Shown here in pieces: positions 27,463 to 63,191 of a stretch of DNA of 64,000 nucleotides. This DNA is from a virus. Numbering within the stretch: the stretch's first letter is position 1; every line of letters starts with the position of its first letter. Below the pieces are notes generated by a model that searched no databases, was not told the origin of the DNA, and saw only the letters and a list, made by a program, of their open reading frames with translations. The position numbers were made by a program, and so were the translations under genes. The stretch covers positions 9,291 to 73,290 of the IMG/VR virus record IMGVR_UViG_3300046697_000246; one strand, given 5' to 3'.

Positions 27463-27491
27463 TTGACGCAGTATGCCAAATGTGGCATTGT
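27463..27491 (+). promoter_or_regulatory. sigma70 promoter with operator in the spacer
   Basis: TTGACG-17-CATTGT; ATGCCAAATGTGGCAT at 27473-27488; ATG at 27498. Confidence 0.6.
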
Positions 27492-27497
27492 GTGGAA

Positions 27498-27908
27498 ATG
27501 AAGCGAAAGCACAGGCTGGCCGTGACTCAAAACACCACTCCTCCGGGTGAGATTTTGTGGGCGCAATGCAAGGGCGCGTCAAAAAAGAAAATAGATGCGA
27601 TCAAACGCGAGATGCGGCGGGATTACAAGCGGTGGAAAAAGCCTTGCCCGAAGTTCACAAAAGCAGATTTTCAGCCGGCTTCGGAATATGAAAAAGGTAG
27701 CTTTTGGGTTCTCGTCACAAGTGAACGGTGGAGCGGTTTTGGTGTTAATGTTGGACTTAATAATTTACCTCAGATTGGTGATGCGCTCAATTTGAACTGG
27801 TGGAGGAGTCCAGCCGATTTTGCAATGGTTGAGGGGCGAAAAGTGCTAAAAGTGGAATATCCAAAACCCACAAAAAGTGATATAGTTAATGCGATAATTT
27901 ATGTCTAA
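27498..27908 (+). CDS. hypothetical moron protein
   Basis: AT-richer ORF opposite to its neighbours, with its own promoter. Confidence 0.6.
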   Translation: MKRKHRLAVTQNTTPPGEILWAQCKGASKKKIDAIKREMRRDYKRWKKPCPKFTKADFQPASEYEKGSFWVLVTSERWSGFGVNVGLNNLPQIGDALNLNWWRSPADFAMVEGRKVLKVEYPKPTKSDIVNAIIYV

Positions 27909-27945
27909 ATCCACTCTGGCAAATTGATGTCTGGGCAGACAATTT

Positions 27946-29178
27946 TCATTTCGATTTCTCCATCAGCTTTACGGCTTCGTCGAGCGCATCGCATTCGGCC
28001 TTCAACTGGTAGCCGCTGACCTTCTCCGCCGCGCCCTTCGCGCTGTCACAGGCTTCCTCGATGGTTGCACCGAGGCCAACAACGCTCGCCACTTCCTCGG
28101 CGTGCGTGTCGTCGGGGATACAATAATCCACGCCGTCAATTCGGCAATGATTGTAAATCTTCATCTGCTCCCTGATTTCTTCGGGGAACAGGATCGCCAA
28201 AGGATGATGCGTTGCCCACGGCGATTTGAAAATGATCTGCGCGACGAACTTCGCCTTTGTCTGCGCGTGAACCAAAACCCCTCCGGCACCTTCCCAAAGG
28301 ATTTCAGGCAGGTTGTCAAACGCTTGGCAGAACGTCTCACCCGCCGGGCTTGCGTGGCGCGCGGTAATATCAATCGGAAAACCGTTGCGAAGCTCGATTG
28401 ACCAGAATTGGCGATAGCCGTCCATGTGATAGGACAGCTTCGTGTTGGCATCCTTCACTTCCTTGGGCAACGAATCGTAATCCACCAGCTTCCCACAATA
28501 CGCCTTGTTTTTGATTTCAAACCCAAAGTAGGAGTTGTTCGGGAACTCGCCTTCAATGCAGTATCCGTCGTAGCCGACCTCGGCGGCATCCGGTATCTCC
28601 GCCTCGACGATGTAATCGAGCGTTTCCATGATCGGCCCGTGTTGCGCTTCCAACTCGTCCAACTGGCTTTTGACCTCGGTGTAGTTCTTGGATTCAAACG
28701 TCTCGGCCATGCCGCGGAAGGTGGAAATCTTCACGAACACATTCTCGTGCTTTTGCAAATACAGCCGCAAGTTGGTCATGCCGTGAATCTGCTGCGCCGG
28801 ATTTGACGGCAAGCCAACCTCTTTTATCAACCCCTTCGTTTTCCATCGGGCTTGCTCAAGGCTCGACTTCATGCCCGTCCCCCACACGCGCTTCCCGATG
28901 CTGCGAAGATATTCCTGCAAATCGCCGTCCCAGCAGTCCGGGAAGATGAACAGATCGTAGTCGTTCACCGCCGGCCAGAAGTATTTGAGCCGCGTCACTC
29001 CGAATTCATCAAGCCCGCTACCGACCGCCAATTCACGGCCATCGCAAAATCCATCCTGCCAAGGTCTGAAATAATCCACTTGCGCGAAAGTGTCTATTGC
29101 GGCAAGGCGCAGCGCGAGCGACACGAACAGGCCGTTGTCGTAGATCAAAACACGTTTCTTGGAAAGGTCTTCGCTCAT
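27946..29178 (-). CDS. ATP-grasp ligase, PurD (GAR synthetase)-like
   Basis: G..VWG....LE..R, VFVKI, IVE..I....EVG.DG; C-terminal VVG.G.TIEEA...A......V as in GARS_C. Confidence 0.75.
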   Translation of the reverse strand: MSEDLSKKRVLIYDNGLFVSLALRLAAIDTFAQVDYFRPWQDGFCDGRELAVGSGLDEFGVTRLKYFWPAVNDYDLFIFPDCWDGDLQEYLRSIGKRVWGTGMKSSLEQARWKTKGLIKEVGLPSNPAQQIHGMTNLRLYLQKHENVFVKISTFRGMAETFESKNYTEVKSQLDELEAQHGPIMETLDYIVEAEIPDAAEVGYDGYCIEGEFPNNSYFGFEIKNKAYCGKLVDYDSLPKEVKDANTKLSYHMDGYRQFWSIELRNGFPIDITARHASPAGETFCQAFDNLPEILWEGAGGVLVHAQTKAKFVAQIIFKSPWATHHPLAILFPEEIREQMKIYNHCRIDGVDYCIPDDTHAEEVASVVGLGATIEEACDSAKGAAEKVSGYQLKAECDALDEAVKLMEKSK

Positions 29179-29555
29179 GGCAATGCGTTGATAGCCTCCT
29201 CATACGTCGCCCAATCAACTCCCAACTCGGCTGCGAGCAATCTCTCCACCGTGGTTGCAAAAAAGTGTTCGCGCCGGTATGGGGCAAGCGCAGAATCTCC
29301 AGGTTCACTATTGTCACCGTCCGGCCTGCACTGCTCGTATTGCTTGTCGAAGGCGTCCACGAGCGCGCAGGTGATTCCCCTGTCCTCGCACAACGCCACT
29401 TCGAGCAATTCGTGGGTTGCCACGAGGAGGGCATATTTGTCGCCAATTTCTTCACTGACGCGAATGTGAAGAACGCCGTCGGCCTCGCGGCGCCAGTCCC
29501 CCACCGTGGGATACGGCTGTTCGGAGTGCGGAATTGTTTCGATCAAGATTTTCAT
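29175..29555 (-). CDS. small HExxE putative metalloprotein
   Basis: Y.TVGDW, ATHELLE, PY..EH.FA..VE; ATGA-coupled to the ATP-grasp gene. Confidence 0.65.
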   Translation of the reverse strand: MKILIETIPHSEQPYPTVGDWRREADGVLHIRVSEEIGDKYALLVATHELLEVALCEDRGITCALVDAFDKQYEQCRPDGDNSEPGDSALAPYRREHFFATTVERLLAAELGVDWATYEEAINALP

Positions 29556-29710
29556 GGCAATTTGGCTTTGAAAACTTTCGGCTCGCGTTTCTTCTTCGCC
29601 TCGGCGATGCGCTTGGCAAGGTCGAGCGGCAAGTCCCGAATCTCAACCGGCACGTCGCGCAGGTTCAAATACGGCGATGCGTCTTTCGGCTTGATCGGCT
29701 GGTTATTCAC
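29552..29710 (-). CDS. 52-aa hypothetical protein
   Basis: GTG start; stop overlaps the next ATG; fills the operon gap (below the ORF-track cutoff). Confidence 0.5.
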   Translation of the reverse strand: MNNQPIKPKDASPYLNLRDVPVEIRDLPLDLAKRIAEAKKKREPKVFKAKLP

Positions 29711-31841
29711 TCAACACGCTCCTTTTTGTCGGAAACTTGCCGGAGCAAAACATCCGTTTCAGGAATTCGGATTTTGATTCCTTCACTCCGGCATCGGCAT
29801 CCTTGGCGAATGCCTTTTCAAACTCGCGCGGGCTGGCTCCAAGATTTTCACGGGCCGACTCGTAAAGTTCGCCGAGCGGTTTTCCAAAGCCAAATTCGTG
29901 GCTGTGCTGGCGCCCGGCGAAACGCTTCGCGGCCTCCTTGCGCGGGATGAACTCGCCGGATGGCAGGATGAAGCCCTCTTCGCCCTTCTTCGCGCCCTTG
30001 CCGTAAATCTCGTCGTGGCTGTTTCCCGTCACCAACTCGCCGGACTTGGCGCGGACGGCGGCGGACACCGGTTCTTGGACAATTTCCGGCTGGACGGGTT
30101 TTGGCTGGCCAGATTCGGGCTTCGGAGCCTGCGCGTCTCGAATTGATTGTGCAACCGTGTCACTGACGTTTCGGGCATAAACGGTGTATTGGTTGATTCC
30201 CTTCGCGCCGGGCTTTGTGGGTTTCTTGATCCACGGCTCAACCTTCGCGTCCACCTTCCCGGACGTTGCGTTGAAAAGCGCGGCGGAAAGCTCGTTTGCG
30301 TCCTTCAGCTTGTCGAAATGTTTGATGACGATGACATTTCCGCCGTTTGGCGTTGTCTGCACGTCTCCCGCCTTGCTGTCGAAAAGCCAGTGCTGTTCTG
30401 GTGCAAGCGTCGGCTTGGCAAGTTGTGGCGATATTGCCGTTTGCTCCGGTTTTGGAGGTATAATTTCGCTGCCAGTTGGCGCTGGCGGCGTTTTTACGAC
30501 GGCGGGCTGGATGGTTGGTGATGTTTGCTTAACCTTGACGCTGACCATGCCTTTCTCGTTTGGCGTCGAAACGTCCACGATGCCAGCATCGGACAACTGC
30601 CGCCATGTGGGTGTATTTCGGCCAAGCACGAGCTTCAGGTGTGGCGTCTGCTGTTCAACTTCCGTGGCGGGAATGAACATCTCGCGGCCCTGCATGTTCT
30701 CGAACAGTTTAGATTTCAGCGCGGGAACTATTTCAGGCGATATTGCTGGCGCAGTAGGTTTGGCGGCGGGCTTGACCGGCTCCGGCGGGAATGCGGCGGC
30801 AAACTGTTCCGGCGTCATCGCGGCCACGCGCCCGATGTCGGCGAAGGTCGAGCCTACTTCTTCGCGCGGCGCAACGACAGGCGGCGTTTGGACTTCTTCC
30901 AGTGGTGGTATCGGGGCAGCTTCCCCTTGTTGTCGAAGTGGTGCCGTTTCACCCACGCCTTCCCCTTCGTTGCGAACAGGAAGGCCCGTTGTTTCTGGCT
31001 GGTCGAGGGCATTTTGATCTCCCGTGGTTGTTCCGCCGCCTCCTGGCGGGGATGATTTTCCGAATTTTCTTGGTTCACCGAACAAAAGGAATTGCGCGAC
31101 GCTTTGCGTGATTTCACCGCCGGTCGGTTTCTGGCCTTGGAGTAGCGGATTCACGACGCCCATGCCTGCGCCGAGTCCAGCTTGGACGGCAAGATTTGTG
31201 GCAAGGCGTTTTTCAATGGCCGTGACAGGCTGGCCAGCGGCGATTTTTCTGATTGCGTTTGCCGCCGTCGCCGTCTGGATCGGGTTGGCGAGTTTGAAGG
31301 CGGGTAGTGAACCGAACAGGCTTCCGGCGAAACTCGCAACCGGATGGTCTTTCAAATCCTCCTGCTGGAACTGTTCGAGTTCGTCAGCAACTTGAGGAGC
31401 GGCAACCTTCAGCGCCTCGTGCTGCGCTTTGTCTGCCACGGTTGAACCGATGATTGCTCCAACAAGTCCCAATCCGACTCCCAAAACATCGGCGAGCGGG
31501 TCTTCCGGGCCGAGGCCGATGGCTTCACCCAATCCCAATCCGCCAAGAAATCTTCCAACAGCGCCAGTCGCGGCTTTCTTCACAACCTGCGAGCCTGCCA
31601 CTTTTGCACCAGCCAAAGCGCCATACGCGGGCAGGATGTTTTCGGCAGCTTGGCGGGTGAATGCTCCGGTTGCGGTTGTGGATGTTGGCGCGGGCGTTGC
31701 GGGGGCGGCGGGCGGCGGGGCGAACTGGTAGGCGGATGGAGCGGCGGGCGCGTTTGTCGTCTCTATGTCATCCGGCGACGGCGGAACAAAGCTGCTTGGC
31801 GCTTCTTCAATTTCATCCGGTGCTGGTGGTGCAAAAGTCAT
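29703..31841 (-). CDS. putative ejection/internal virion protein
   Basis: N-terminal F.PP.PD repeats, Gly/Ala-rich hydrophobic segment, Pro-rich linker; start at ATG 31841, downstream of TTGAAT-17-TATAGA. Confidence 0.6.
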   Translation of the reverse strand: MTFAPPAPDEIEEAPSSFVPPSPDDIETTNAPAAPSAYQFAPPPAAPATPAPTSTTATGAFTRQAAENILPAYGALAGAKVAGSQVVKKAATGAVGRFLGGLGLGEAIGLGPEDPLADVLGVGLGLVGAIIGSTVADKAQHEALKVAAPQVADELEQFQQEDLKDHPVASFAGSLFGSLPAFKLANPIQTATAANAIRKIAAGQPVTAIEKRLATNLAVQAGLGAGMGVVNPLLQGQKPTGGEITQSVAQFLLFGEPRKFGKSSPPGGGGTTTGDQNALDQPETTGLPVRNEGEGVGETAPLRQQGEAAPIPPLEEVQTPPVVAPREEVGSTFADIGRVAAMTPEQFAAAFPPEPVKPAAKPTAPAISPEIVPALKSKLFENMQGREMFIPATEVEQQTPHLKLVLGRNTPTWRQLSDAGIVDVSTPNEKGMVSVKVKQTSPTIQPAVVKTPPAPTGSEIIPPKPEQTAISPQLAKPTLAPEQHWLFDSKAGDVQTTPNGGNVIVIKHFDKLKDANELSAALFNATSGKVDAKVEPWIKKPTKPGAKGINQYTVYARNVSDTVAQSIRDAQAPKPESGQPKPVQPEIVQEPVSAAVRAKSGELVTGNSHDEIYGKGAKKGEEGFILPSGEFIPRKEAAKRFAGRQHSHEFGFGKPLGELYESARENLGASPREFEKAFAKDADAGVKESKSEFLKRMFCSGKFPTKRSVLSE

Positions 31842-45436: not shown

Positions 45437-46030
45437 TCATAAAAGTGCCAACTCCTGCTCAACGGCATGGATTTGAGCCGTGGCGGGCGGTGGTGGCGTC
45501 GAGTTGCGTTCCAGCCATGTCCGGGCAGCCGCCGCGCTTTTGAGGCGGTTAAACTCACTAAATGACATGCGTGGTGGCTTTGGCTTCTCTGACAATGCCC
45601 TTTCAATACTCCACCCACGATTTAGGCGGTTGATAATTGTATTGTGCGGGATACCCATTAACTTTCCCCAATCCACCAGACAGCGAACAACTCCATTAAA
45701 ATTAAGAATGTGATTAGTGTGTTGGTTTCTGTTTTGCTCTGCACAAGTTGCCCAGCGACAATTTTCTTTTGAGTAAGAAAAATCATTGTCAATTCTTTCA
45801 ATAGACTTTCCGCCAGGCCTTGGCCCCATATCTTCAAAGAAATTAGGAAATGAATGCCTCCAACGATCACAGACAAAAATCCCGCGCCCCCCATATCGTG
45901 GAAACGCATCTACGTTCGGATTGTAACACCTTGCAAGCATGGCCTTCCAAATTCGATATTCGGTCGTTTCACCGCCTCTTTTTGCCGCGCCGTGTTTCGT
46001 CATAAAATTTTGGGTTGGCGTTTTAGGCAA
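45437..46030 (-). CDS. HNH homing endonuclease-like protein
   Basis: Y..W..M..RC.NP...YGGRGI.VCDRW...F..DMG.RP...SIERIDN...Y..ENCRWAT..EQ.RN; AT-rich; start may be ATG 46003. Confidence 0.85.
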   Translation of the reverse strand: MPKTPTQNFMTKHGAAKRGGETTEYRIWKAMLARCYNPNVDAFPRYGGRGIFVCDRWRHSFPNFFEDMGPRPGGKSIERIDNDFSYSKENCRWATCAEQNRNQHTNHILNFNGVVRCLVDWGKLMGIPHNTIINRLNRGWSIERALSEKPKPPRMSFSEFNRLKSAAAARTWLERNSTPPPPATAQIHAVEQELALL

Positions 46031-46552: not shown

Positions 46553-46867
46553 TCACTTCGGCTTATCAGCTATGTTAGCCGTCACTAGCTGGCTCTTTGG
46601 CGGGTAGCCTGATGCCTCGTCACATACACGCTGCATCCATTCCGCCAATGTCAGATTGTGCAGCCGTGCCATTCGCACATACCAGTTCTTGCGCGCCATC
46701 ACGACGCGCAGGTGGATGTGTCCTGTGGCAGCTACGCTGTCATTCAGCGGACGACCAGCCCCGCGTCCTAGGTCGGCGGTTTTAGCGCCACGGGGCCGGT
46801 CGTGAGATTCTTCGTGGCATCGGACGCATACGTCCGAGTCTTTGCCGTGTTCGCATTTGTGGGCCAT
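46553..46867 (-). CDS. RHH/CopG-like DNA-binding protein (cassette gene)
   Basis: GAGRP...HIHLRV...K..Y...A....LTLAEWM..VCD; its 3' part is duplicated at 63912-64000. Confidence 0.65.
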   Translation of the reverse strand: MAHKCEHGKDSDVCVRCHEESHDRPRGAKTADLGRGAGRPLNDSVAATGHIHLRVVMARKNWYVRMARLHNLTLAEWMQRVCDEASGYPPKSQLVTANIADKPK

Positions 46868-46868
46868 A

Positions 46869-47114
46869 TTATTTCAGCAGCTTGGCGACTTCGGAGGCGA
46901 TGCGGCTATTGTGCGGCTCGCCGATATTGTCAGCCGTCCACCATCCACGGCGCGAGGCTCGGCAGTCGCCCGGCGCGCAGCCGTATCCGCACTTGCATTG
47001 CGGATCGGAATGATTGACGTGGGTTGCTCCGGTAGCAGCCTCGATCTTGCTGACGATTTTGCGGGACAGGAATCCGTCGTGGCATCCGAAGATATATTCG
47101 CTTGAGGTTGTCAT
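46869..47114 (-). CDS. hypothetical protein (cassette gene)
   Basis: 81 aa; upstream promoter TTGACA-17-GAAACT (47186-47214, minus strand). Confidence 0.6.
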   Translation of the reverse strand: MTTSSEYIFGCHDGFLSRKIVSKIEAATGATHVNHSDPQCKCGYGCAPGDCRASRRGWWTADNIGEPHNSRIASEVAKLLK

Positions 47115-47289
47115 ATTTTTGTCTGTGTTGTTTGTTCACTTCCCGGATTCGCCGGGGCGATTTGTTGGTTTCTTCCAACACAGATAGTTTCGCATTTCAT
47201 CTTCATTTTGTCAACACATTATTATCAGATTTTTACGATTTATTTTGCCCTTGAAAACATTGACGATTTTAGTGTTTTTCGCCCGTGAC

Positions 47290-47379
47290 GGCTAACAAAT
47301 CGGTGCAGCCAATGCCGGTTGGCGCTCTCAGCCAAGTCCGGGCGTCACTGGCCCGGCATGGCTGACCTCTGCGTTGGGT
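47290..47379 (+). repeat. attC-like site 1
   Basis: GGCTAAC..gt[g]cagcca[a]tgccgg / ccggcatggctgac..GTTGGGT. Confidence 0.85.
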
Positions 47380-47545
47380 GCAGAAAAGTTTCATGCGGAT
47401 TCTCCATGCGCTTGCGGGCGTTTGCCGCTGCGCCGAGTTTGCCAAGTCTTGAGGCGTTTCCTTTGTGAAACCTGCCATGTCTAGCGGTGATTATTATATC
47501 AGCCTGTTGGGCGGCACAGCGCACGCGCACTGTGCCGCGTGAGTT

Positions 47546-47953
47546 TTATTTGTTTCGGGTAGCTTCAAGGATTGGCAGGTTGGCTTCGGTCGGCACATAG
47601 ACCACGGTTTTATCCGTGCCTTGCGCGGCCACGTCGTTGATCCAGAGGTAGCGGAGATACGCTTCGTTGTTTTTCAGCGATTCGCCGATTATCTGGTTTG
47701 CTTTTGCGACACCACCAGCGCGGATTACTTCCGCTTGCGCCAGCAGTTCCGCCGATTCCATTTTGGCCTTCGCTTCGGCCACGGCCACTTCTTTTGCGGA
47801 CTGAGCGTGTGCCAGCATTGCCTGGCCGAGTGCGCGGCTCGCATAGATGTTGTATTGAGGATACGCCCACATTGCGCCGAAGATTACGACGCCGATTGCC
47901 ACGATTGATGCGACGATCCAGCCCGCGTAGTTTGGTTCACCATTTTCTTTCAT
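47546..47953 (-). CDS. membrane protein with SPFH-like C-terminal coiled coil (cassette gene)
   Basis: TM helix, then AEV.RA.G.A.AN..I..SL....YLRYLWI..VYVPTEANLPILEA. Confidence 0.7.
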   Translation of the reverse strand: MKENGEPNYAGWIVASIVAIGVVIFGAMWAYPQYNIYASRALGQAMLAHAQSAKEVAVAEAKAKMESAELLAQAEVIRAGGVAKANQIIGESLKNNEAYLRYLWINDVAAQGTDKTVVYVPTEANLPILEATRNK

Positions 47954-47977
47954 TGTTGTGTGTCTTTCGATTGTGCC

Positions 47978-48086
47978 GCCCAACAACCGCATGGAGCCAA
48001 TGCGGGTTGGACGCGCAGTTTATTTCGTTGAGGCTCCAGATTGTTTCACGGTTTCAGTCCCGCATGGCTCATGCGGAGCGTTAGAC
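47978..48086 (+). repeat. attC-like site 2
   Basis: GCCCAAC..ccgcatggagccaatgcggg / cccgcatggctcatgcgg..GTTAGAC. Confidence 0.85.
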
Positions 48087-48226
48087 AGCCGGGCGGAGCG
48101 TTTTGCTTTACGGCGAGCTTTTTGAAGTGCGGCCTGTTGCGCTGGCGTGATTATCCGCGTGCGCTTACGTTTCTTCGGGCCTTGCGCGCCCCACCGCTTG
48201 AAATCTTCTGACGTGTAGGTTTTCAA
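48020..48226 (-). CDS. small basic protein (cassette gene)
   Basis: F..WG..G.K motif; C-terminus is encoded by attC site 2. Confidence 0.55.
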   Translation of the reverse strand: MKTYTSEDFKRWGAQGPKKRKRTRIITPAQQAALQKARRKAKRSARLSNAPHEPCGTETVKQSGASTK

Positions 48227-48546
48227 AATTGGTGCCGGTCTTTATGGGTTTCATCCCAATGTTCTTTTGCGTGGCAGTTACCGCAAAGTAATTCGCATTT
48301 AGAAATCTCAATCTTAACCTTTTCTAAAGACTTTGTTTGCGCTAAAAGCCTGTTCACTCTATCCACTTTCGTTGATGGGTCAATATGGTGGAACTGCAAA
48401 CAGGCCGGATGAGATTCACCGCACCTTTTACAGCCTGACAATTTAACACCCAACACATACGCCCTTAATTTAGCTCTGTGAGCGGACTGCCGCTTACGCT
48501 CACTCTCTTTGTAGAGATGTAAATTTTCACGCCCGATGTAACTCAT
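48223..48546 (-). CDS. HNH endonuclease-like protein (cassette gene)
   Basis: C..CGE....CLQFHH.DP..K...E..KC.LLC.NCH..H. Confidence 0.8.
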   Translation of the reverse strand: MSYIGRENLHLYKESERKRQSAHRAKLRAYVLGVKLSGCKRCGESHPACLQFHHIDPSTKVDRVNRLLAQTKSLEKVKIEISKCELLCGNCHAKEHWDETHKDRHQF

Positions 48547-48549
48547 AAA

Positions 48550-48872
48550 TTTATTGCGGGTCTTTCCCCGCTGTCATCACCTTCGGACGATCAATCCAAT
48601 CCACGGCCACGGTGCGGGCCTGTCCCAGCTTCGGTTGCTGCTCCACTTCCGGCATTGTTGATGCCAGTTCCTCACGCGGGGCTATGAGTCGGAACCGCCG
48701 GAGGCTTTCGCCAAATTATCTCCGGACTTTCACGCCGTCCGGCTGGCGGCTCTTACGTTAGACAGATTCCGCGCTCTGCCGTGCTTTCGTGCGGCTCAGT
48801 TTATTTTATACTCACTTCACTGGAGCCGACTCCGTTTTTCACAAGTCGCACTGCCGGTTTCCCGCGTGCAAG
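48550..48872 (-). ncRNA. candidate structured non-coding RNA / long leader
   Basis: About 320 nt without a credible ORF, several GAAA-capped hairpins, downstream of an AT-rich promoter-like segment. Confidence 0.4.
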
Positions 48873-48943
48873 ATTATTTATATCATATCCCCGTTACGAA
48901 TCAAACTCTTTTTTGATTTATTTTCGTGAATCGCAAACCGGCT

Positions 48944-49040
48944 GTCTAACAACGCGCTGGAACCAACGCCCATTATCGCTGTCAGTCCGCTACGCGGGTC
49001 ATTCCTCAAGCTGGGCGTGGTTCAGCTTGAGGCGTTAGAC
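48944..49040 (+). repeat. attC-like site 3
   Basis: GTCTAAC..gctg[g]aacca[a]cgccc / gggcgtggttcagc..GTTAGAC. Confidence 0.9.
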
Positions 49041-49300
49041 GGCTCGGCGAGCGCCTCGCGCGCTATGTCGCCAAGTCCGAAACTGCGGATGCTTTGCGAT
49101 TCTTCGGACTCGATGATTTCTTCGAGTGCTTTTTTGTAGCGCTTCACATTCTCACCGAGCGCAAAAATTTGTCTGGCATCGGCTCGAATCAGCCTGTCAG
49201 ATTCAAGCAGTTCGCCGATGAGTTGCAGTTTTGACACCTTTTTGTATCGTGCGGCGACTGTAATTTGTTCGCCGAATGTTTGTTCGCTCATAGAGTTCAT
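49022..49300 (-). CDS. hypothetical coiled-coil protein (cassette gene)
   Basis: Ends IAREAL..PSNASS inside attC site 3. Confidence 0.6.
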   Translation of the reverse strand: MNSMSEQTFGEQITVAARYKKVSKLQLIGELLESDRLIRADARQIFALGENVKRYKKALEEIIESEESQSIRSFGLGDIAREALAEPSNASS

Positions 49301-49521
49301 TTGTTCCTTTTCACGAGGCGTTCAGCCTCGAACTTGGTCAGCCCTATTGCCAGCTTGGTCACTTTTCCGAACTTGGTCACTTTCACCACCATCCAAGCGT
49401 TTCCTACCGTCGAGCATGGTTTTATTTGAAGTTTCATATTTTCAATTCGCCGTCTAACAACCGCATGAAGCCAATGCGGTTGGGCGTCTCTGGTTTGACG
49501 GGAAGTCTCTGGTGATTTCAT
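49297..49521 (-). CDS. hypothetical protein (cassette gene)
   Basis: Starts inside attC site 4; ATGA-coupled to the downstream gene. Confidence 0.55.
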   Translation of the reverse strand: MKSPETSRQTRDAQPHWLHAVVRRRIENMKLQIKPCSTVGNAWMVVKVTKFGKVTKLAIGLTKFEAERLVKRNK

Positions 49522-49557
49522 GGTTTGGTGTCCGCGTCGCTTATGCGGACGTTAGAC
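49452..49557 (+). repeat. attC-like site 4
   Basis: GTCTAAC..ccgcatgaagccaatgcgg / ccgcgtcgcttatgcgg..GTTAGAC. Confidence 0.85.
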
Positions 49558-49567
49558 GGCTTCAGTA

Positions 49568-49942
49568 TCACCAGTCTATGAGTATCGTGTGTTCACCGGC
49601 TTCAAGCAGCCCTTTGGCATGGAGGTCATTTGCCACCATTTGCAGGTCAGGGTAGAAGTTTCTATCCCACCAAAGTCCCAGGCTGTAGTCCGTTCGCCCA
49701 TCGGCCAGCGCTTTTTTTGGATCTCTTGCGAGCCACGCCGCGAAGCTCACGCCCTTTTCTTCATGGTTCACTTTTTCCGGCACAGTTGTTCGCTCGTGGT
49801 CACTTGCTTCGGATGGCACGTCTATTACCACCGTTCCGCGACTCATGCAGCCATCCTGTTGCTGTAGATTGTAGGGGCGTCCGTAGGTTTTCACCACGAG
49901 CGCATCCCATTCCGACACTTCGATCACTTGTTTTGTTTTCAT
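49568..49942 (-). CDS. conserved-looking phage hypothetical protein (cassette gene)
   Basis: YGRPY..QQQDGC..RG, W.RNFYP..ANDL. Confidence 0.7.
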   Translation of the reverse strand: MKTKQVIEVSEWDALVVKTYGRPYNLQQQDGCMSRGTVVIDVPSEASDHERTTVPEKVNHEEKGVSFAAWLARDPKKALADGRTDYSLGLWWDRNFYPDLQMVANDLHAKGLLEAGEHTILIDW

Positions 49943-49963
49943 ATTTGTTTATCGCTGTTCGCC

Positions 49964-50062
49964 GTCTAACAACTCACTCCAGCCAACCGGCGTTACGACT
50001 TGCCGTCCGCCTTCGCGGGCGACGCGCCTCGGTCGCCGGTGGCTGAGTTCGAGGCGTTCTCC
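49964..50062 (+). repeat. attC-like site 5
   Basis: GTCTAAC..ctc[c]agcca[a]ccggcg / cgccggtggctgag..GTTCTCC. Confidence 0.85.
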
Positions 50063-50286
50063 GGCACGAGTCCTTTGTATTTATGGAGTTGGTAGCGGAG
50101 GTGTTGGATTAGCGCGGCGCAGTTTTTCCCATCATCACCAAAGTCTCGTAAGGCGGCTTCGGCTTGCCACATTTGAGCGGTTGCCTGTGCGATGTGAGAC
50201 ATGACGTGTTCGCGTGCCGGAGAACAAGTCGCTGCACCCGCAACTGCCGCTGCCCGTTTCCGATTCTTGGCTTTTATTTTGGTCAT
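49993..50286 (-). CDS. hypothetical protein (cassette gene)
   Basis: Starts in attC site 6 and ends in site 5. Confidence 0.55.
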   Translation of the reverse strand: MTKIKAKNRKRAAAVAGAATCSPAREHVMSHIAQATAQMWQAEAALRDFGDDGKNCAALIQHLRYQLHKYKGLVPENASNSATGDRGASPAKADGKS

Positions 50287-50346
50287 AAAGTTTCAGTGCC
50301 GCCCACGGTCGCGCTCGGCGGCAGTGGGGTGAGCTTCACGTTCGGC
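50219..50346 (+). repeat. attC-like site 6
   Basis: GGAGAAC..gctgcacccgcaactgccgc / gcggcagtggggtgagc..GTTCGGC. Confidence 0.8.
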
Positions 50347-50350
50347 GTCT

Positions 50351-50998
50351 TCATTTTCGCGCCTCCGGTTTATCGTAGGGCAGTCCGACGAAAGCAAAGA
50401 CGGCTTCCTCGGATTCCATCGCTCGCGCTTCGTCACCCCGCGAGAATCCCGCACCGTATGGATTCCATTTCCATCCGCGTTCCTGCGCGGACATGCAGAT
50501 GCGCGTGTTGCTGTCCGCCGGGCCGGTTCGGCAGACGAGATAGTTGTGCCAGTTCTCCGCCGTCGCCGCGAAGAAGTCCACGGGCAGCCCGGTGGCACGG
50601 TGGCGCATCAGTTTATTTTTCGCGCCATACATTTCCGATCCGTTCACATTCTTGCGCCGTTCCAGCACGCCGGATTTTTCGAGCGCGGCGATTACTTCGT
50701 CCGCGAGATTTACCGTGATGCTGGCGAACATATCGGCAGGGTCTTGGCGCTCTTCGGTTTTTCCGATGTAGAGGATTTCAGCATCGCCCACGGTGGTCTT
50801 TCGCCGGCGCAGTGAGCCAGCGACGACGAGGCGCTCACAGACTGGCTTGAGCGCCGCGCAGAGTTCCGCAGCCACCTTCATTCCAACGGCGTTGTCGAAG
50901 CGAGGTTTCTGTCCAGACGCCGAACACATCGCTGCACCCGCAATGACTGCTGCGGTCACAGTTTTCGGCGATGGTGGCGTTTTTGGCGCAGCAGTCAT
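50351..50998 (-). CDS. minimal family X DNA polymerase-like nucleotidyltransferase (palm + thumb; cassette gene)
   Basis: AGSLRR....GDAEIL, PVDFF, RTG..D.N and E..VF...GL.Y..PE.R; start at ATG 50998 inside attC site 7. Confidence 0.8.
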   Translation of the reverse strand: MTAAPKTPPSPKTVTAAVIAGAAMCSASGQKPRFDNAVGMKVAAELCAALKPVCERLVVAGSLRRRKTTVGDAEILYIGKTEERQDPADMFASITVNLADEVIAALEKSGVLERRKNVNGSEMYGAKNKLMRHRATGLPVDFFAATAENWHNYLVCRTGPADSNTRICMSAQERGWKWNPYGAGFSRGDEARAMESEEAVFAFVGLPYDKPEARK

Positions 50999-51019
50999 GG
51001 GGTGAGCTTTGCGTTCGGC
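50919..51019 (+). repeat. attC-like site 7
   Basis: GCCGAAC..gctgcacccgcaatgactgctgcg / cgcagcagtcatggggtgagc..GTTCGGC. Confidence 0.85.
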
Positions 51020-51237
51020 TGCTTTATTGCTTGGGCATTCCAGTTGCGGCGGGCGGTGTGGCGAGTCCACGCCATTTTTCCGCTCCGACCGCATTTGGGA
51101 CATAGCAGCCAGATCAGTCCGCCGCCACCGTCCCATATCGGGAGCGTTCCACAGTTACACGGCAGCAGCCGAACAAGCCTGCCGGAGCCAACCGTGGTTG
51201 GCCGTCTCTTTTTATTCGCTACGGATTTCTTTTTCAT
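50995..51237 (-). CDS. Lar-like (restriction alleviation) Zn-ribbon protein (cassette gene)
   Basis: LLPC.CG...C.KC.......AR..WN; start at ATG 51237. Confidence 0.6.
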   Translation of the reverse strand: MKKKSVANKKRRPTTVGSGRLVRLLPCNCGTLPIWDGGGGLIWLLCPKCGRSGKMAWTRHTARRNWNAQAIKQPNAKLTP

Positions 51238-51278
51238 AAAGTCTCTAGTCCACGGCGGCGCATCAGGCACCGTTCGGC
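51168..51278 (+). repeat. attC-like site 8
   Basis: GCCGAAC..gcctg..ccgtgg / ccacgg..caggc..GTTCGGC; somewhat degenerate. Confidence 0.7.
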
Positions 51279-51805
51279 TTCTGATACACGATCCAGTGTG
51301 TTCGGGTGTTTCCGACCCGCTGACCAAATAGCGGCTTCTGGTCGGTGAGCGACAAAACGGTTGTCAGCTTCACCCGATGTTCATTCCATTTGAAAACGAG
51401 CGTTCCCAGAGGACACAGGACGCGGAAGCATTCACGGAAGCCGGCCGAGATTTCGTTGCGCCAGTCGAGCGGAAGGCTTCCGTATTTCTTTATCGTCCTT
51501 CCGTTCGGCCCGCACCAGGTATGCGGCGGGTCGAATACGACGAGCGCGAAAGTGCAGTCAGGGAATGGCAGTTCCTTGAAGTTTGCCAGCACGTCGGGAT
51601 TTACGACGATGCTTGCCGGTTTCGGGCCGGTGTGGTCTATAAGCGTTTCGCGGCGCTTATCCACGAACAGAGCGCGAGGGTCTGATTTATCAAACCAGAA
51701 CATCCGACTCCCGCAGCACGCATCCAGCACAGAAGCCGAACAAGTCCTTGGAGGCAAAGACGCCACGCCTTGCGCTCCATCATTGATTTCAATTTGAGTA
51801 TTCAT
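51263..51805 (-). CDS. SAM-dependent (probable DNA amino) methyltransferase (cassette gene)
   Basis: VLDACCGSRMFWFDK, LVVFDPPH, F.EC.RVL...G.LVFKW. Confidence 0.85.
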   Translation of the reverse strand: MNTQIEINDGAQGVASLPPRTCSASVLDACCGSRMFWFDKSDPRALFVDKRRETLIDHTGPKPASIVVNPDVLANFKELPFPDCTFALVVFDPPHTWCGPNGRTIKKYGSLPLDWRNEISAGFRECFRVLCPLGTLVFKWNEHRVKLTTVLSLTDQKPLFGQRVGNTRTHWIVYQKPNGA

Positions 51806-51856
51806 TTTACGTTCGAGGCGGCGCTGTCGGCGTCTTGCCTCAAGTCTGCGTTCGGC
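51735..51856 (+). repeat. attC-like site 9
   Basis: GCCGAAC..cttg[g]aggcaa[a]gacgcc / ggcgtcttgcctcaag..GTTCGGC. Confidence 0.85.
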
Positions 51857-52254
51857 GAAATGAATTGCACCGGCAGCCCCATCTCGTTTGCGATGGCGAT
51901 TTCACCCGCAACGCCTTTTGATTCCTTCCAGCCGTCGAGTGTCAGCACGATCATCGCGCAGCACGCGGCGAGGATGGCGCGGTCATACGCCTGCCAGTAT
52001 TCCCACCCCAGAGGCAGATCACCGGCCAGCGCAATTGGATGCGTGTGGCTGATAGGCGAGTAGATGTGCATTCCCTTCCGCATCAGTTCCGCCGCCGCCG
52101 CGTTGACGGCTCGGAAGCGTCCTTCCCGCACCGATGCGTCTGGGTGCGAGTATGGGGTTGCGAGATATACGAGCGTTTTCGCCGAACAAGCGGATGCAGG
52201 CAACAGCCGCTGGCCATCTGGTTTTTCAAGTGTTGATTCCATATTCAAAGTCAT
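51802..52254 (-). CDS. DUF1937 family protein (cassette gene)
   Basis: YLATPYSH, SPISH.HP, W...D..IL..C..M.VL...GW.ES.GV..EI..A; start at ATG 52254 inside attC site 10. Confidence 0.8.
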   Translation of the reverse strand: MTLNMESTLEKPDGQRLLPASACSAKTLVYLATPYSHPDASVREGRFRAVNAAAAELMRKGMHIYSPISHTHPIALAGDLPLGWEYWQAYDRAILAACCAMIVLTLDGWKESKGVAGEIAIANEMGLPVQFISPNADLRQDADSAASNVK

Positions 52255-52293
52255 TTGGTCTTCGGCGGCTGTGCCTGATCCGCAGCGTTCGGC
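52181..52293 (+). repeat. attC-like site 10
   Basis: GCCGAAC..gcggat[g]caggca[a]cagccg / cggctgtgcctgatccgc..GTTCGGC. Confidence 0.85.
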
Positions 52294-52300
52294 GGCATTT

Positions 52301-52549
52301 TCATTCGATGCAAACAATACGCTCGGAGCCGCATTCAGGACACACGAGTTTCCCGCCGGCCACGCATGGCATTCGTTCCTCTCCGCAGTTATGGCAGCCG
52401 TGATATTTTCCGCAGGCTTGTTCTACGCTCAACGTTGCCGCCGAACAAACCGTTGCAGATAATTCGCTCTGCGCCTTCTGTTCTCGCTGCTCTCGTCGGC
52501 GAGCAACGCGCGCATACACGAGGATGGATGTTGGGTCAAAGTCGCTCAT
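52301..52549 (-). CDS. small Zn-ribbon protein (cassette gene)
   Basis: CHNC...CPECGS. Confidence 0.55.
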   Translation of the reverse strand: MSDFDPTSILVYARVARRREQREQKAQSELSATVCSAATLSVEQACGKYHGCHNCGEERMPCVAGGKLVCPECGSERIVCIE

Positions 52550-52570
52550 ATCTGAACTTTCTCGTTAGCC
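52440..52570 (+). repeat. attC-like site 11
   Basis: GCCGAAC..ttgcagata / tatctgaa..GTTAGCC; weaker stem. Confidence 0.65.
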
Positions 52571-52854
52571 ATCGGTTCGACATCCACGCCTTTCATTCCA
52601 AGAAACGCTTTTCCGTGGATTGGGCATACAAACATATCGAAGTGGTGCTTGTGACTTCGGACGCGCCACTCAGCCTTGTTCTCGCAGAGTTCGCGGTCAG
52701 CTATGACCATACACGTCCGCTGGCTAACCCGGCGCTGCTGCGAATCCGTGCCTCGCTTTACGGACAACGGCATCATCACCATTTCGCGGCACCATCCGGC
52801 ACAGTAGCCGTCATCCGTCACCAGTTCTTTTTTGCATTTTGGACACGTTCTCAT
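52546..52854 (-). CDS. Cys-rich hypothetical protein (cassette gene)
   Basis: The N-terminal CPKC..C..WC is encoded within the long loop of attC site 12. Confidence 0.55.
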   Translation of the reverse strand: MRTCPKCKKELVTDDGYCAGWCREMVMMPLSVKRGTDSQQRRVSQRTCMVIADRELCENKAEWRVRSHKHHFDMFVCPIHGKAFLGMKGVDVEPMANEKVQI

Positions 52855-52920
52855 ATTCGTTATTTTCCTTTGCGCTCCACATCCGCCGCCGGCACGGATC
52901 GCAGAGCTTGGTCGTTAAGC
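52722..52920 (+). repeat. attC-like site 12 (199 bp)
   Basis: GGCTAAC..gct[g]ctgcga[a]tccgtgcc / ggcacggatcgcagagc..GTTAAGC. Confidence 0.8.
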
Positions 52921-53193
52921 CGCTAGCTTCAGTTTGTGGCAGTTTTTTATTTCCTCACAACATTGCGGACAAGTTATCGCTTGCGGTGGGACATTCTCCC
53001 AAGCGGATTGATCTTGCTCATTTCCGGTCGCAGTTCCATCGAACGCTTGCCCGCAGATGGTAAATTCCGAATTGAGAGCACTTATCCGGTGGACAAATCC
53101 ATCACCTGTTTTTCCGAAGCCCGTATTCTTTCGGGGCCGCGGCTTAACCCGTCGCTGCTGCGGACACGGCTTGGCGTCTTGGGATTTGCTCAT
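52915..53193 (-). CDS. hypothetical Zn-binding protein (cassette gene)
   Basis: VH.....T.CG.A.D...ITCP.C. Confidence 0.6.
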   Translation of the reverse strand: MSKSQDAKPCPQQRRVKPRPRKNTGFGKTGDGFVHRISALNSEFTICGQAFDGTATGNEQDQSAWENVPPQAITCPQCCEEIKNCHKLKLAA

Positions 53194-53250
53194 AAGGTTT
53201 CTGGTTTGCCTGCGTCCCCATGTGCCGGGTCGCAGAGCGCGTCGTTCGGC
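53142..53250 (+). repeat. attC-like site 13
   Basis: GCTTAAC..cgctgctgcggacacggc / gccgggtcgcagagcg..GTTCGGC. Confidence 0.75.
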
Positions 53251-55519: not shown

Positions 55520-56452
55520 TTATCCCTTGATGATTTTCAGCGCGGCCAGAAAGCCCGTCTTGTTTTTGAGCAGCCGCTTCGCCTCCTCGGTTTTGATTTC
55601 CGAAAACATGGTCAAGCTGTCCGCATCGGCGATGTTTCCCGAATCCGTCCCGAATTTGACGACGTGCCCCAGATCAAACCCGGCACCCAATACCAACGCT
55701 TCAAGTTCGGCTTGCGGCGTAGTTTTCTCCGGTGCGGACTCAGTTGGAATTTGACGCGGGGGTTCGCCAGGGATTTGCGCGAAAACCGGCGCGGGCGCGG
55801 GCGCATCGGCGGAAATAATCGCAGAGATGGTATCAATCATTCGCAGTTCATCGCCCTGATACAATCCACCGAGCAGCGTCGGGAATGTCGCGCGCAAGGC
55901 GTCGGCCTCGGCGCACTTCACGATCTGACCAGGTGTTTTGGCTTCTGACCAAAACGGCGTCTCATAACCCGGAATCATGGCCGACACAGATAGCCGGCGG
56001 TAAGTCGGCTTGCGGCCTTTGCGGTGAACTCGCGCCCAACCGCCGACGCAGATTTCATCCTTCAATTTGAAGTCGCCATCGCGCTCGGTTACGACGTTGT
56101 TTTCCGGGTTCACCAAAATAATGCCGGACTCCATGCCCTCGTAATCCGCGCAAGTTTCGGCGCGCTTCAAAAACGCGACGTGTGCCGTGATGAGAGAAAA
56201 CACCGCGCCATTTTTTCCATCGTATCCGCAAAGAAAACAGTCGCCCGCGAATGGATTAAGCCGCTGCGCCTGGCAGAGCATCATAAACCTCACCGCATCG
56301 CGCACGGTGCAAACCTTTCCCGTTTTTGTTGGAATGCAAACGGTGTTTTGGATTATTGAAACCGACAGTTTGATTTTGTCGGCTGATCCGAATGGAATGA
56401 ATTCCATCGGCTTTTCGGACTTGTCTATTGTTTGAACTACATTTGTGCTCAT
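55520..56452 (-). CDS. bet: Bet/RecT-family single-strand annealing recombinase
   Basis: F..LC....LNPF....L..Y, GGWA.V.RK.R, W....P.....KCAEA.ALR..FP. Confidence 0.8.
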   Translation of the reverse strand: MSTNVVQTIDKSEKPMEFIPFGSADKIKLSVSIIQNTVCIPTKTGKVCTVRDAVRFMMLCQAQRLNPFAGDCFLCGYDGKNGAVFSLITAHVAFLKRAETCADYEGMESGIILVNPENNVVTERDGDFKLKDEICVGGWARVHRKGRKPTYRRLSVSAMIPGYETPFWSEAKTPGQIVKCAEADALRATFPTLLGGLYQGDELRMIDTISAIISADAPAPAPVFAQIPGEPPRQIPTESAPEKTTPQAELEALVLGAGFDLGHVVKFGTDSGNIADADSLTMFSEIKTEEAKRLLKNKTGFLAALKIIKG

Positions 56453-61359: not shown

Positions 61360-61828
61360 GTTTTGCGCCTTTGCGCGGTTTTTTCAGTTCCAGTTTTTCG
61401 GAAAATTTGTCGGCGTGGCCAAATATGAATTTGGAGAAAAAGCGTAACGCAGCGCCGATTTTGGGACGTTGAATTTTTCGACAACTCTCGAAACCCAATT
61501 TGGAGGCAAACAGCTTTTGCTCATGCCGATTTTTTCAGCCAGCGAAGCCAGTTTTTTTGTGGCTGCCGATTGCGCCGCCCGCGCCGCCGGCACTGGAAAG
61601 CCAGGTCCCCAGCCCGCGAGCGTGCCAGCCGCCGAATTTTTTGCGTGCCATTGGTTGCAAAAAATCGCGTCATCTCCGCGATGGCCAAGCAGATGCAGCT
61701 TGCCAATTTGTTTTTCGAGCCGCGAAAAAATGCGCTCGAAGGTTAATGCCTCGGTGTTGATCTTTACGATTACACCCTGTTTTGTTTCAAGAACTTTGAA
61801 TTTTTTCATAGTGTTAATTTGTTGTTTT
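61360..61828. repeat. 469-bp direct repeat, copy 2
   Basis: Appears identical to 60197-60665. Confidence 0.9.
61384..61809 (-). CDS. hypothetical protein (141 aa)
   Basis: First gene after the promoter at 61848-61875. Confidence 0.6.
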   Translation of the reverse strand: MKKFKVLETKQGVIVKINTEALTFERIFSRLEKQIGKLHLLGHRGDDAIFCNQWHAKNSAAGTLAGWGPGFPVPAARAAQSAATKKLASLAEKIGMSKSCLPPNWVSRVVEKFNVPKSALRYAFSPNSYLATPTNFPKNWN

Positions 61829-61847
61829 GTTTTCTGCTAACGACTAC

Positions 61848-61875
61848 AGAATAACACATGCAAACCGCTTTGCAA
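61848..61875 (-). promoter_or_regulatory. promoter with palindromic operator TGCAAA-CCGC-TTTGCA
   Basis: TTGCAA-16-TATTCT; same core CAAAGCGGTTTG at 62107-62118. Confidence 0.55.
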
Positions 61876-61933
61876 GGAATGATTGAAGGAAAATGATGCC
61901 CATTGTTGGGCTAAACCGAAGTAGAATAACCCT

Positions 61934-62089
61934 TTATTTACAAGGGTTTTTGCAATTAAGCATGGACAATCTTTGCCTTTCCAGATTTGCACGCTTAAGA
62001 TTTTTCAAGATTGCCGCCCGCTTTTTGACTGTTTTTTTCAAACCGCCAAGCCGGCCAAGCGCAACCGCAAACGGATTTTTAGAACTCAT
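61934..62089 (-). CDS. small basic KNPFAVALGRLGG protein
   Basis: Paralog of 60853-61014; preceded by TTGCAA-18-TACACT containing the operator. Confidence 0.65.
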   Translation of the reverse strand: MSSKNPFAVALGRLGGLKKTVKKRAAILKNLKRANLERQRLSMLNCKNPCK

Positions 62090-62254
62090 GCCGGCCAGTG
62101 TAACAGCAAAGCGGTTTGGATTGCAAGCAAAATAATCTGTTGACAGGAACGGCAATCAGTTTTTGTTGCAACCTGATACGATTGAAACAAAGTTGCCGAA
62201 TATCAGCCCAAAAGACCGACGCCAGAAACTCCTGATATTGGACTTGCCTTGCCG

Positions 62255-62818
62255 TCATGCGTCACCAGCAATGATGCTGTCGGCCAATGCCTGGTTGCCA
62301 TTGTCCGCCGCTTTGACCGCCCGCCGTTCGCGCGCCATGAATGCTTCAGACGGTGCCTTGCCGTCGTCGCCGGTGTTGACTCGCCGCCGCCGACCGCCGT
62401 GTTTCTTTTCCCGATAACGCTTTGACCGCGCCGCGCTGGTGTGATCCTTCTCCCGATACTTCGCAAAATTTAACGCAATGAAACCGCCAGAGACACGCAC
62501 CAATCTTCGCCCGTCAAAGTCCGGTGTCCGGCTTTCCATCTCCGGTTCTCCCAAACGCTCAAGAGCCGCCAGTCCAATTTCAGCTTCCATCCCGGATCGG
62601 TGGATGATGCCGCTGCCAGCCGCCGCGACAAATCCATACCAACCAACCGGCACGACAAACCCCGTTTCATCCAGAGACCGGACCTTGATTTGTTTCGCCG
62701 GTTCCCTCAATTCAAACGGCTCCGCCATGAGCAAAGCCGTGATGAACAATTCCCGCGCAGCGCGGTCAAGCCAGATTGTTGAGTCTAATATCCCGCAGTC
62801 AAGTTTTACAAATGCCAT
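62255..62818 (-). CDS. replication-initiator-like N-terminal domain protein
   Basis: F.KL...ILDSTIW, A.L..L..P...SR....DGRR...V.GG...LN..KYR; start at ATG 62818. Confidence 0.65.
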   Translation of the reverse strand: MAFVKLDCGILDSTIWLDRAARELFITALLMAEPFELREPAKQIKVRSLDETGFVVPVGWYGFVAAAGSGIIHRSGMEAEIGLAALERLGEPEMESRTPDFDGRRLVRVSGGFIALNFAKYREKDHTSAARSKRYREKKHGGRRRRVNTGDDGKAPSEAFMARERRAVKAADNGNQALADSIIAGDA

Positions 62819-62826
62819 ATTCCAAC

Positions 62827-62891
62827 AGCATAAACCATGCGTCACGCCGTGTCAAGTGTGATGTCACGCGTAGCAAGCCGTAGCGTCACGC
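62827..62891 (-). promoter_or_regulatory. promoter overlapped by three GTCACGC boxes at 22-bp period
   Basis: TTGACA-17-TATGCT; GTCACGC at 62841, 62863 and 62885. Confidence 0.55.
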
Positions 62892-63191
62892 AAGCAGAAG
62901 CATACTACAGAGAAAAAACTCCCCGCCCGCGGCAAAATCCCCCAAATCCCGCCAATCCCAAATTCCCCCCATGTCAACACCAAGCCCGACCAATAAAAAC
63001 GTCCCCAGCGCCAGCCAGACACCAAATTTCATGCGATTTACAAGCCTTTTCACCATTTTACTCGTTTTTGCCGTTTTACCAGCTTAACCCAAATCCTGAC
63101 CAAATGGATTGCCCAAAGCGGAAATGGCGACTATCCCTGACGCCCCGTAACATTGATTTTGAAACATGATATGATTGGTTCATGGCAAAAG

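Follow-up and report, generated by a model that had tools for sequence, protein, structure and literature searches.

Integrons are regarded as bacterial devices. Clusters of integron attC sites without an integrase are nevertheless already known from phages: Qi, Rajabal, Ghaly, Tetu and Gillings (2023, Front Microbiol; PMC9892861) described 17 such clusters, and the integron integrase IntI1 recombined five out of six virulent-phage attC sites that were tested (PMC9892861). In the parts of that article considered here, the phage examples are small (TJE1 has three attC sites and four open reading frames, ORFs) and are presented mainly as carriers of integron parts. Here we analysed a 64,000-nucleotide stretch of a virus genome from IMG/VR (record IMGVR_UViG_3300046697_000246), hereafter the window, which carries at positions 46574-53250 an array of 13 complete attC-type sites (90-199 bp) and three R' half-sites, with a cargo of about fifteen small accessory genes. 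We consider it likely that this is a genuine integron-type cassette array, that is, a cluster of attC sites lacking integron integrases (CALIN), located in the accessory region of a tailed peat phage, the host of which probably belongs to the Verrucomicrobiota. Positions are those of the window unless they are stated as genome positions.

The array is like the phage CALINs of PMC9892861, as far as the parts considered describe them, in that several attC sites bound small genes, the phage encodes no integrase of its own and DNA methyltransferases are found in the cargo. It differs from them in the number of its sites, in the reversal of all identified genes relative to attC polarity, in an attC family that corresponds to that of a candidate host phylum, and in natural variants that differ at G/TT, the slash marking the crossover point. 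A search of a limited literature collection, with the supplementary list of PMC9892861, which may include larger or reversed arrays, outside its scope, found neither a phage attC array of reversed polarity nor a match to verrucomicrobial integrons; in the same scope, no published long array combined phage-type cargo, reversed genes, host-matched attC sites and G/TT variants.

Two groups of bacterial integrons were used for comparison. Class 1 arrays, such as estX-psp-aadA2-cmlA1-aadA1-qacL in NZ_CP075373, have the same site anatomy as the phage, running from AAC through a spacer, a left arm that carries extra bases, a loop and a right arm to GTT; the cmlA1 site begins GCCCAACAAATCGCTGCAGCCGAC, and the phage site at 47290 begins GGCTAACAAATCGGTGCAGCCAAT. 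They are equipped with intI1, attI1, a promoter and top-strand genes, and the sites used here are mostly 57-72 nt, whereas the phage has sites of 90-199 nt, bottom-strand genes and no integrase. The sedentary integrons on the chromosomes of Verrucomicrobiota from peat, bog and permafrost sources (loci L109-L188 and L229-L236) share the motif TAACMAGTCGCCGGAGCCAA and the matching right arm with the phage sites, and their attC sites, about 99-110 nt long, are individually 74-87% identical to those of the phage. The verrucomicrobial arrays adjoin intI and carry genes on the top strand, whereas the phage array lacks intI, has its genes reversed and has no cassette in common with the 120 loci of the comparison.

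Anatomy and model recognition of the attC sites

A previous reading of this DNA made from the sequence alone (the sequence-only reading) had proposed 13 complete sites of 90-199 bp, and all of them were located at the starts it gave (Table 1). The two R' half-sites that it listed, at 46574 and 47506, are real, but the list was incomplete and a third R' box at 48757 was added. The common polarity that it described also holds, as the + strand of every site shows xxxxAAC followed by a short spacer, the left arm, the loop, the right arm and finally GTTxxxx, with AAC and GTT invariant in 13 of 13 sites. When each left arm was aligned with the reverse complement of its right arm, two unpaired left-arm bases, again in agreement with the earlier description, were read by us about 5 nt apart in about 12 of the 13 sites. 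Nearly all sites share one arm plan, in which stems of 3-6, 5 and 6-9 bp follow one another, the first two separated by one extra base and the last two by an extra A. The consensus of the outer boxes in attC sites is RYYYAAC/GTTRRRY, and the outer positions of six sites fit it.

A crude scan for AAC..GTT with pairing arms over the whole 73-kb genome gave 23 hits at a score of 10 or higher, and 16 of them fell within 47290-53250, representing 10 of the 13 sites. The same scan on five mononucleotide-shuffled genomes gave 6, 4, 3, 3 and 0 hits. For recognition by a model, which the sequence-only reading had suggested as a check, we constructed our own covariance model, R1, distinct from that of IntegronFinder, with 13 base pairs and trained solely on 10 class-1 integron attC sites. 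The training and held-out sites were located behind annotated cassette genes in class-1 arrays of one phage-plasmid and eight plasmid records. Run unfiltered over both strands of the window, R1 returned 11 of the 13 sites as its top 11 hits, all at full model length with exact ends, all on the + strand and with scores of 13.2-37.7 bits, and the remaining hits in the window all had E > 1. The six held-out known attC sites scored 19.5-40.6 bits. As a control, 79 unrelated phage loci gave no hit at E <= 0.1; across 80 viral loci (487 kb), all seven hits lay in a single related locus (L029, from the phage G005 described below).

Pairing was evaluated on the 11 aligned sites, in an alignment that was fitted to R1 and is thereby biased towards the structure. 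Standard pairs filled 99.3% of the 135 pair cells, two cells being wobble pairs, and compensatory double changes were seen in eight of the ten arm pairs. The observed values were not attained in any of 500 shuffles, and partners slid out of register paired in 19-37% of cells. The summed DNA folding energies of the two strands were -293.3 and -293.1. Strand-specific folding or an excess of wobble was considered and rejected, as the energies were nearly equal and wobble-compatible mismatches numbered 5 versus 3. Because there were only two wobble cells and no strand bias, a DNA structure fits better than an RNA structure. Rfam at gathering thresholds gave no match in the window. The anatomy and the model recognition confirmed the 13 sites as attC-type sites.

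Joints between the cassettes

In an integron array, the crossover takes place between G and TT of the R' box, and the outer R' bases belong to the next cassette and match its R'' box. In all 13 phage sites (52 of 52 positions), the outer four R'' bases were complementary to the R' box that precedes them, while they matched the R' box of their own site in six of 13 sites, at 36 of 52 positions. The box type changes seven times along the array; at these changes the neighbour rule held in all seven cases and the own-site rule failed in all seven. The same chain of boxes was also observed in four arrays of three related phages.

Natural variation at G/TT

Sequencing runs with near-identical sequence are labelled as peat, permafrost, freshwater, lake and pond metagenomes, and the variants in them were examined as assembled contigs. 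Invariance of gene order and content would have spoken against the sequence-only reading, but whole units were found to differ at G/TT. In contig 20 (1,667 nt) of the run X6, position 46573 was joined directly to 48080. The deleted segment, 46574-48079, comprises exactly three units, from the hairpin-less box to the R' box of the site at 47978, and the same contig also lacked the HNH endonuclease gene. Contigs of the runs X4 and X5 ended at 46578, 47373/47374, 48079/48080 and near 49034, and unrelated sequence continued on either side of 47373/47374.

Another metagenome contig, L237, contained window positions 47371-48084 at 98.3% identity within a different array of at least five sites. The homology began at the TT of G/TTGGGT and ended within GTTAG of the cassette's own attC site, and the left flank was the same sequence as the loose end at 47374 in X4. 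The shared unit, with exact ends, is 47374-48084. In this contig, the cassette has moved together with its own attC site, in the polarity to be expected from the extrahelical bases. A gene with its own attC site, bounded by G/TT on both sides, is what defines a mobile cassette, and such a unit was present here, although not every exchange fits this form. These contigs demonstrated that units are gained, lost and moved by crossover at G/TT.

Lack of a recombinase gene and related phages

The window represents bases 9291-73290 of the 73,290-bp IMG/VR record, for which CheckV gave a completeness of 95%. The head of the genome (genome 1-1763) is 100% identical to genome 70650-72412 (window 61360-63122); because the contig thus wraps around, the genome is essentially complete. 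Downstream of the repeat the copies diverge (genome 1761-1946 against 73103-73288, at 88%), and IMG/VR classes the record as linear without end repeats. The phage is tailed, as shown by PHROG matches to proteins of the tail, the internal virion and the virion structure; most of its large proteins are without any PHROG match.

The statement of the sequence-only reading that the window contains no tyrosine recombinase could be extended to the whole near-complete genome by six-frame profile searches. IntI and PF00589 gave no match at E <= 10 in the whole genome, and neither a serine recombinase/resolvase nor a Y1 transposase was found there by the same kind of search. The array is not a complete integron, which has intI, attI and a promoter beside the array; it corresponds to a CALIN, defined in the parts of PMC9892861 considered here as at least two attC sites with no integron integrase nearby. 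A gene for a RecT-like annealing protein is present at 55520-56452, 2.3 kb from the right end of the array.

Relatives were retrieved from viral contigs with a 24-letter motif taken from two attC arms. Five other viral contigs contained the motif, and all five carry attC arrays as judged by R1. No tyrosine recombinase was found in these five related viral records, two of which are rated 100% complete. A distant relative is the phage G005, whose 71.6-kb sequence has terminal repeats; its core proteins are roughly 30-55% identical by tblastx, and its array has 16 sites on one strand. In G003 (loci L027 and L028), two attC arrays lie in opposite orientations, at 90-3223 and 27155-30680. Probing viral contigs with the DUF5131 gene that flanks the array gave no confirmed relative, and megablast of the array against deposited phages gave no match.

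attC family of verrucomicrobial integrons

The exact attC-arm motif had no match in bacterial genomes, and a 20-letter consensus of the attC family matched at least 120 stretches of bacterial genomes. Verrucomicrobiota was the label of 61 of the 80 matches listed, from sources including peat, bog and permafrost. The family motif occurred up to 14 times in 8 kb, and many of the stretches form arrays. Ten of the 80 listed matches (L110, L121, L123, L149, L159, L166, L170, L171, L184 and L186) are binned as Bifidobacteriaceae; these bins are probably mislabelled or contaminated.

A search for intI in the rest of the contig and in the predicted host, as the sequence-only reading had advised, found the gene absent from the phage genome and IntI above the curated cut-off in five of five Verrucomicrobiota genomes tested, at 399-423 bits. 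R1 found 56 attC sites in seven of these host loci, and in one host contig the array adjoins intI and points away from it, which is the canonical layout. The shared attC family suggests that the phage host is probably a member of the Verrucomicrobiota. As the phage has no recombinase of its own, we propose, in line with the sequence-only reading, that the integron integrase of the infected cell most probably acts in trans on the phage sites; the shared attC family lends this indirect support.

Reversed polarity of the cassette genes

In known class-1 sites, the arm that follows R'' carries the extra bases when the coding (top) strand of the resistance genes is read. Those of the phage sites are found on this same arm when the + strand is read, and the + strand is also the only one matched by R1, which identifies it as the canonical top strand of the window. 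Of the genes, seven have a family match in Pfam or PHROG, one of them a weak match, and all seven are located on the minus strand. The phage genes lie opposite to the canonical cassette strand, and the array departs in this respect from canonical cassettes, in which the gene is on the attC top strand.

The gaps between sites were compared by a crude strand measure, the count of gaps that are open on one strand only. In five phage arrays, 13 gaps were open on the opposite strand only and two on the top strand only (n = 43), against two and 32, respectively, in the host arrays (n = 69). In G005, PHROG matches were obtained for two of the five longest ORFs opposite the attC top strand and for none of the five longest on the top strand, and its methyltransferase homologue, 95.5% identical in amino acids to the cassette gene of the window, is also reversed.

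The reversed genes overlap the attC sites. In the 48 sites of the window, G002, G003 and G005, an ORF of at least 40 codons starts inside the site in 27 cases; the start of several genes falls in the loop of the attC site that belongs to their cassette, and many genes run a few codons into the neighbouring site before they end. Reversed cassette genes without a stop codon of their own ended at the TAA in the CTAAC box (9) or a few codons into the neighbouring attC site (28) in the same set, and the last residues of genes that stop in a neighbouring site therefore depend on the adjacent cassette. The phase bias on the 3' side (28, 9, 1) arises because of the box stop codons (TAA in CTAAC), the conserved arm and the selection rule. 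The possibility that the attC interior serves as an in-frame start or leader module was rejected, as the phases were 12, 6 and 9 across the 27 sites of the four genomes; by our reading, a single reading frame is common to the five GCCGAAC/GGAGAAC-type sites of the window. AT skew was likewise rejected as an indicator of the coding strand, being negative on the attC top strand in phage and canonical host arrays alike. Scans of the array for promoter and terminator consensus sequences gave counts no higher than those in shuffles.

As to the cargo, the DNA methyltransferase, PolX-like, DUF1937 and HNH genes named in the sequence-only reading were borne out by Pfam and PHROG matches, while a Lar-like gene was not confirmed by any search. 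Among 80 viral loci with methyltransferase homologues, 79 had no attC site at E <= 0.1, the exception being G005, indicating that this gene family is not generally cassette-borne.

Discussion

In the explanation as an integron-type cassette array, each unit on the + strand consists of the TT after one R' box, one or two genes, their own attC site and the G of the next G/TT. The sites would fold as single strands, as attC sites do, and the extrahelical bases of R''/L'' would mark the minus strand of the window as the recombinogenic bottom strand. An integron integrase of the host cell would cut and join at these sites between phage arrays, and perhaps also with the host integron. The genes, being on the bottom strand, would be transcribed antisense to canonical cassettes, with many start codons lying in attC loops.

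Several observations weigh against this assignment. Two of the 13 sites (51168 and 52722) were missed by R1, and in seven of the 13 sites the outer R'' box (GCCGAAC, GGAGAAC or GCTTAAC) does not follow the RYYYAAC consensus. No cassette gene was common to the phage array and the 120 host loci compared, which amount to 822 kb, and the host would be assigned by one character, the attC family. The break points are also not uniform. The methyltransferase module shared with G005 (89% in nucleotides) spans from an R' box to R'' plus three bases, and neither of the attC interiors that flank it is common to G005. The interior of the attC site at 51168-51278 is 90% identical to a site of G003, while both neighbours differ, and metagenome contigs also break at R'' of the site at 50219. 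Some break points are thus unlike a crossover restricted to the bottom strand at R'. Recombination of the attC top strand is about 1000-fold less efficient in the systems described in the part of PMC13108822 considered here. The break points at R'' would need such top-strand recombination, or ordinary recombination through the short boxes, perhaps with the RecT-like protein, which could mediate some of the exchanges.

General recombination of the phage, by RecT-like annealing or by template switching, might shuffle the modules, with the boxes and arms acting as short homologies and no site-specific integrase taking part. Besides the RecT-like gene itself, break points at both R' and R'' boxes and homology ends inside genes (for example at 47890 and 49929, compared with G003 and G005) agree with this explanation, as does a hybrid attC site, composed of the left arm of the site at 49452 and the right arm of the site at 47978, in contigs of X6 and X8. 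The best-resolved joints, however, share only five letters (GTTAG) or two (TT), which is very short for annealing. The perfect chain of R boxes, in 13 of 13 sites and in the related arrays, is what crossover at a single fixed phosphate would be expected to produce, and annealing leaves the retained extrahelical bases and the attC geometry unexplained. We regard general recombination as an unlikely explanation of the array as a whole, although annealing may well operate alongside site-specific exchange.

The hairpins could alternatively act mainly in RNA, in the processing of a polycistronic minus-strand mRNA (of RNase III type) or in the control of translation through start codons in loops, in which case the likeness to attC sites would be convergent. 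As the genes are on the minus strand, their mRNA does carry the hairpins, and the ORF starts inside 27 of 48 sites, together with the many ORFs that end inside the next site, are compatible with such a role. A simple hairpin, however, needs its own ends to be paired, whereas R'' of each site pairs with R' of its neighbour (13 of 13) rather than with its own (6 of 13). Moreover, a model trained on DNA attC sites finds these sites, the same attC family is found in bacterial integrons next to intI, wobble is seen in just two of 135 pair cells with no strand bias in energy or wobble count, and the DNA variants differ exactly at G/TT. A primarily RNA-based function is very improbable on these grounds; a secondary role of the hairpins in RNA may exist.

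The least probable explanation is that a fragment of a host integron was picked up once by illegitimate recombination and is no longer active: the verrucomicrobial attC family and the missing integrase would agree with it, but the cargo is of phage type (the phrog_954 methyltransferase, HNH, phrog_11227 and phrog_27943), gene polarity is the reverse of that in host arrays, at least five further viral contigs, one of them from a distant relative whose cassettes are nearly all different, also carry arrays, whole units vary between near-identical populations, and no cassette of the array was found among the 120 host loci.

The integron-type cassette array can be developed into a further model, which we put forward tentatively and as a possibility. 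In this mirror-image integron, phages of peat Verrucomicrobiota would place their genes on the recombinogenic strand of attC sites of the host family, and during infection the host IntI would shuffle the cassettes among co-infecting phages. Cassettes might also enter host integrons, in which their genes would stand in antisense and stay silent. The recombinogenic strand would become exposed through transcription of the phage itself, and, with exchange at both R boxes, gene bodies could be swapped independently of attC interiors. To our knowledge, current integron models leave a consistent reversal of polarity unexplained. The reversal was consistent in four related phages, as opposed to the canonical arrays of the hosts. 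The long array, the phage-type cargo, the host-matched attC sites and the natural variation at G/TT suggest that phages use the host integrase to swap accessory genes. The shared attC family would also represent a new kind of phage-host link for uncultured phages.

Features of the array and minor observations

Table 1. Positions of the attC sites, R' boxes and genes in the array (window coordinates; bit scores and E-values of sites are from R1)
Feature	Position	Strand	Remarks
R' box GTTAGCC without hairpin	46574-46580	+	leftmost box; start of first cassette; position where attI would sit; complementary to R'' of site 47290
attC site 1	47290-47379	+	R'' GGCTAAC, R' GTTGGGT; 37.7 bits, E 5e-7; contigs diverge at 47373/47374
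R' half-site GTTGGGC	47506-47512	+	ends a 133-bp unit without attC; complementary to R'' of site 47978
attC site 2	47978-48086	+	GCCCAAC .. GTTAGAC; 19.8 bits; with its cassette at 98.3% in contig L237
R' half-site GTTAGAC	48757-48763	+	within 475-bp ORF-poor stretch 48547-49021
attC site 3	48944-49040	+	GTCTAAC .. GTTAGAC; 32.9 bits
attC site 4	49452-49557	+	GTCTAAC .. GTTAGAC; 21.6 bits
attC site 5	49964-50062	+	GTCTAAC .. GTTCTCC; 30.6 bits; 88.6% identity to an attC site of related phage G005
attC site 6	50219-50346	+	GGAGAAC .. GTTCGGC; 17.1 bits
attC site 7	50919-51019	+	GCCGAAC .. GTTCGGC; 23.5 bits; inside 5' part of long PolX-like frame
attC site 8	51168-51278	+	GCCGAAC .. GTTCGGC; missed by R1; arm ends pair; R-box chain holds
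attC site 9	51735-51856	+	GCCGAAC .. GTTCGGC; 29.9 bits
attC site 10	52181-52293	+	GCCGAAC .. GTTCGGC; 13.2 bits; best arm pairing in crude scan
attC site 11	52440-52570	+	GCCGAAC .. GTTAGCC; 15.9 bits
attC site 12	52722-52920	+	GGCTAAC .. GTTAAGC; 199 bp; missed by R1; arm pairing score 14; R-box chain holds
attC site 13	53142-53250	+	GCTTAAC .. GTTCGGC; 18.5 bits; right end of array
Two small ORFs, first cassette	46553-46867, 46869-47114	-	no family match
Membrane protein, phrog_11227	47546-47992	-	E 2.7e-45; likely start ATG 47953 (read from sequence)
HNH endonuclease gene	48223-48546	-	present or absent within cassette
Two overlapping small ORFs, one cassette	49022-49300, 49297-49521	-	no family match
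phrog_27943 cassette gene (function unknown)	49568-49942	-	E 5e-52
97-aa ORF	49993-50286	-	start in loop of attC site 6, end within attC site 5; no family match
PolX-like gene (thumb and palm domains)	50351-51136	-	start probably ATG inside attC site 7 (from sequence)
DNA methyltransferase, phrog_954	51263-51805	-	E 1e-62; start codon in loop of attC site 9
DUF1937 gene	51802-52317	-	E 2.4e-22; likely start ATG 52241 in loop of attC site 10 (from sequence)
Three small ORFs	52301-52549, 52546-52854, 52915-53193	-	last: weak phrog_15583 match

At the left end of the array, the box at 46574 is preceded by an imperfect inverted copy, the order being GGCTTATC, 6 nt and GTTAGCC. The segment 46553-46580 looks like a two-box core site of the double-stranded kind, placed where attI would be, and the array starts of G005 and G003 have loosely similar layouts. 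Comparison of host attI regions with this phage boundary gave no convincing similarity, the best local scores being short and chance-like, and a 23-mer from the left boundary had no match in the metagenome contigs.

The ORF-poor stretch at 48547-49021 has no convincing gene on the coding strand, and may consist of a decayed attC site and an ORF-less cassette. In contigs of X6 and X8, positions 48237-48558 are skipped, with seven shared letters at the ends; the HNH gene behaves as a free-standing homing-type insertion within the cassette, without dependence on the attC sites. Left of the array, at 45437-46030, there is another HNH nuclease gene. A tRNA scan of the window found none. In the run X8, the summed contig depth was 560-1040 over 47208-47608, 50015-50415 and 52421-52821, compared with about 15-45 in most other bins, which indicates that these units also sit in other, more abundant genomes of the permafrost sample.

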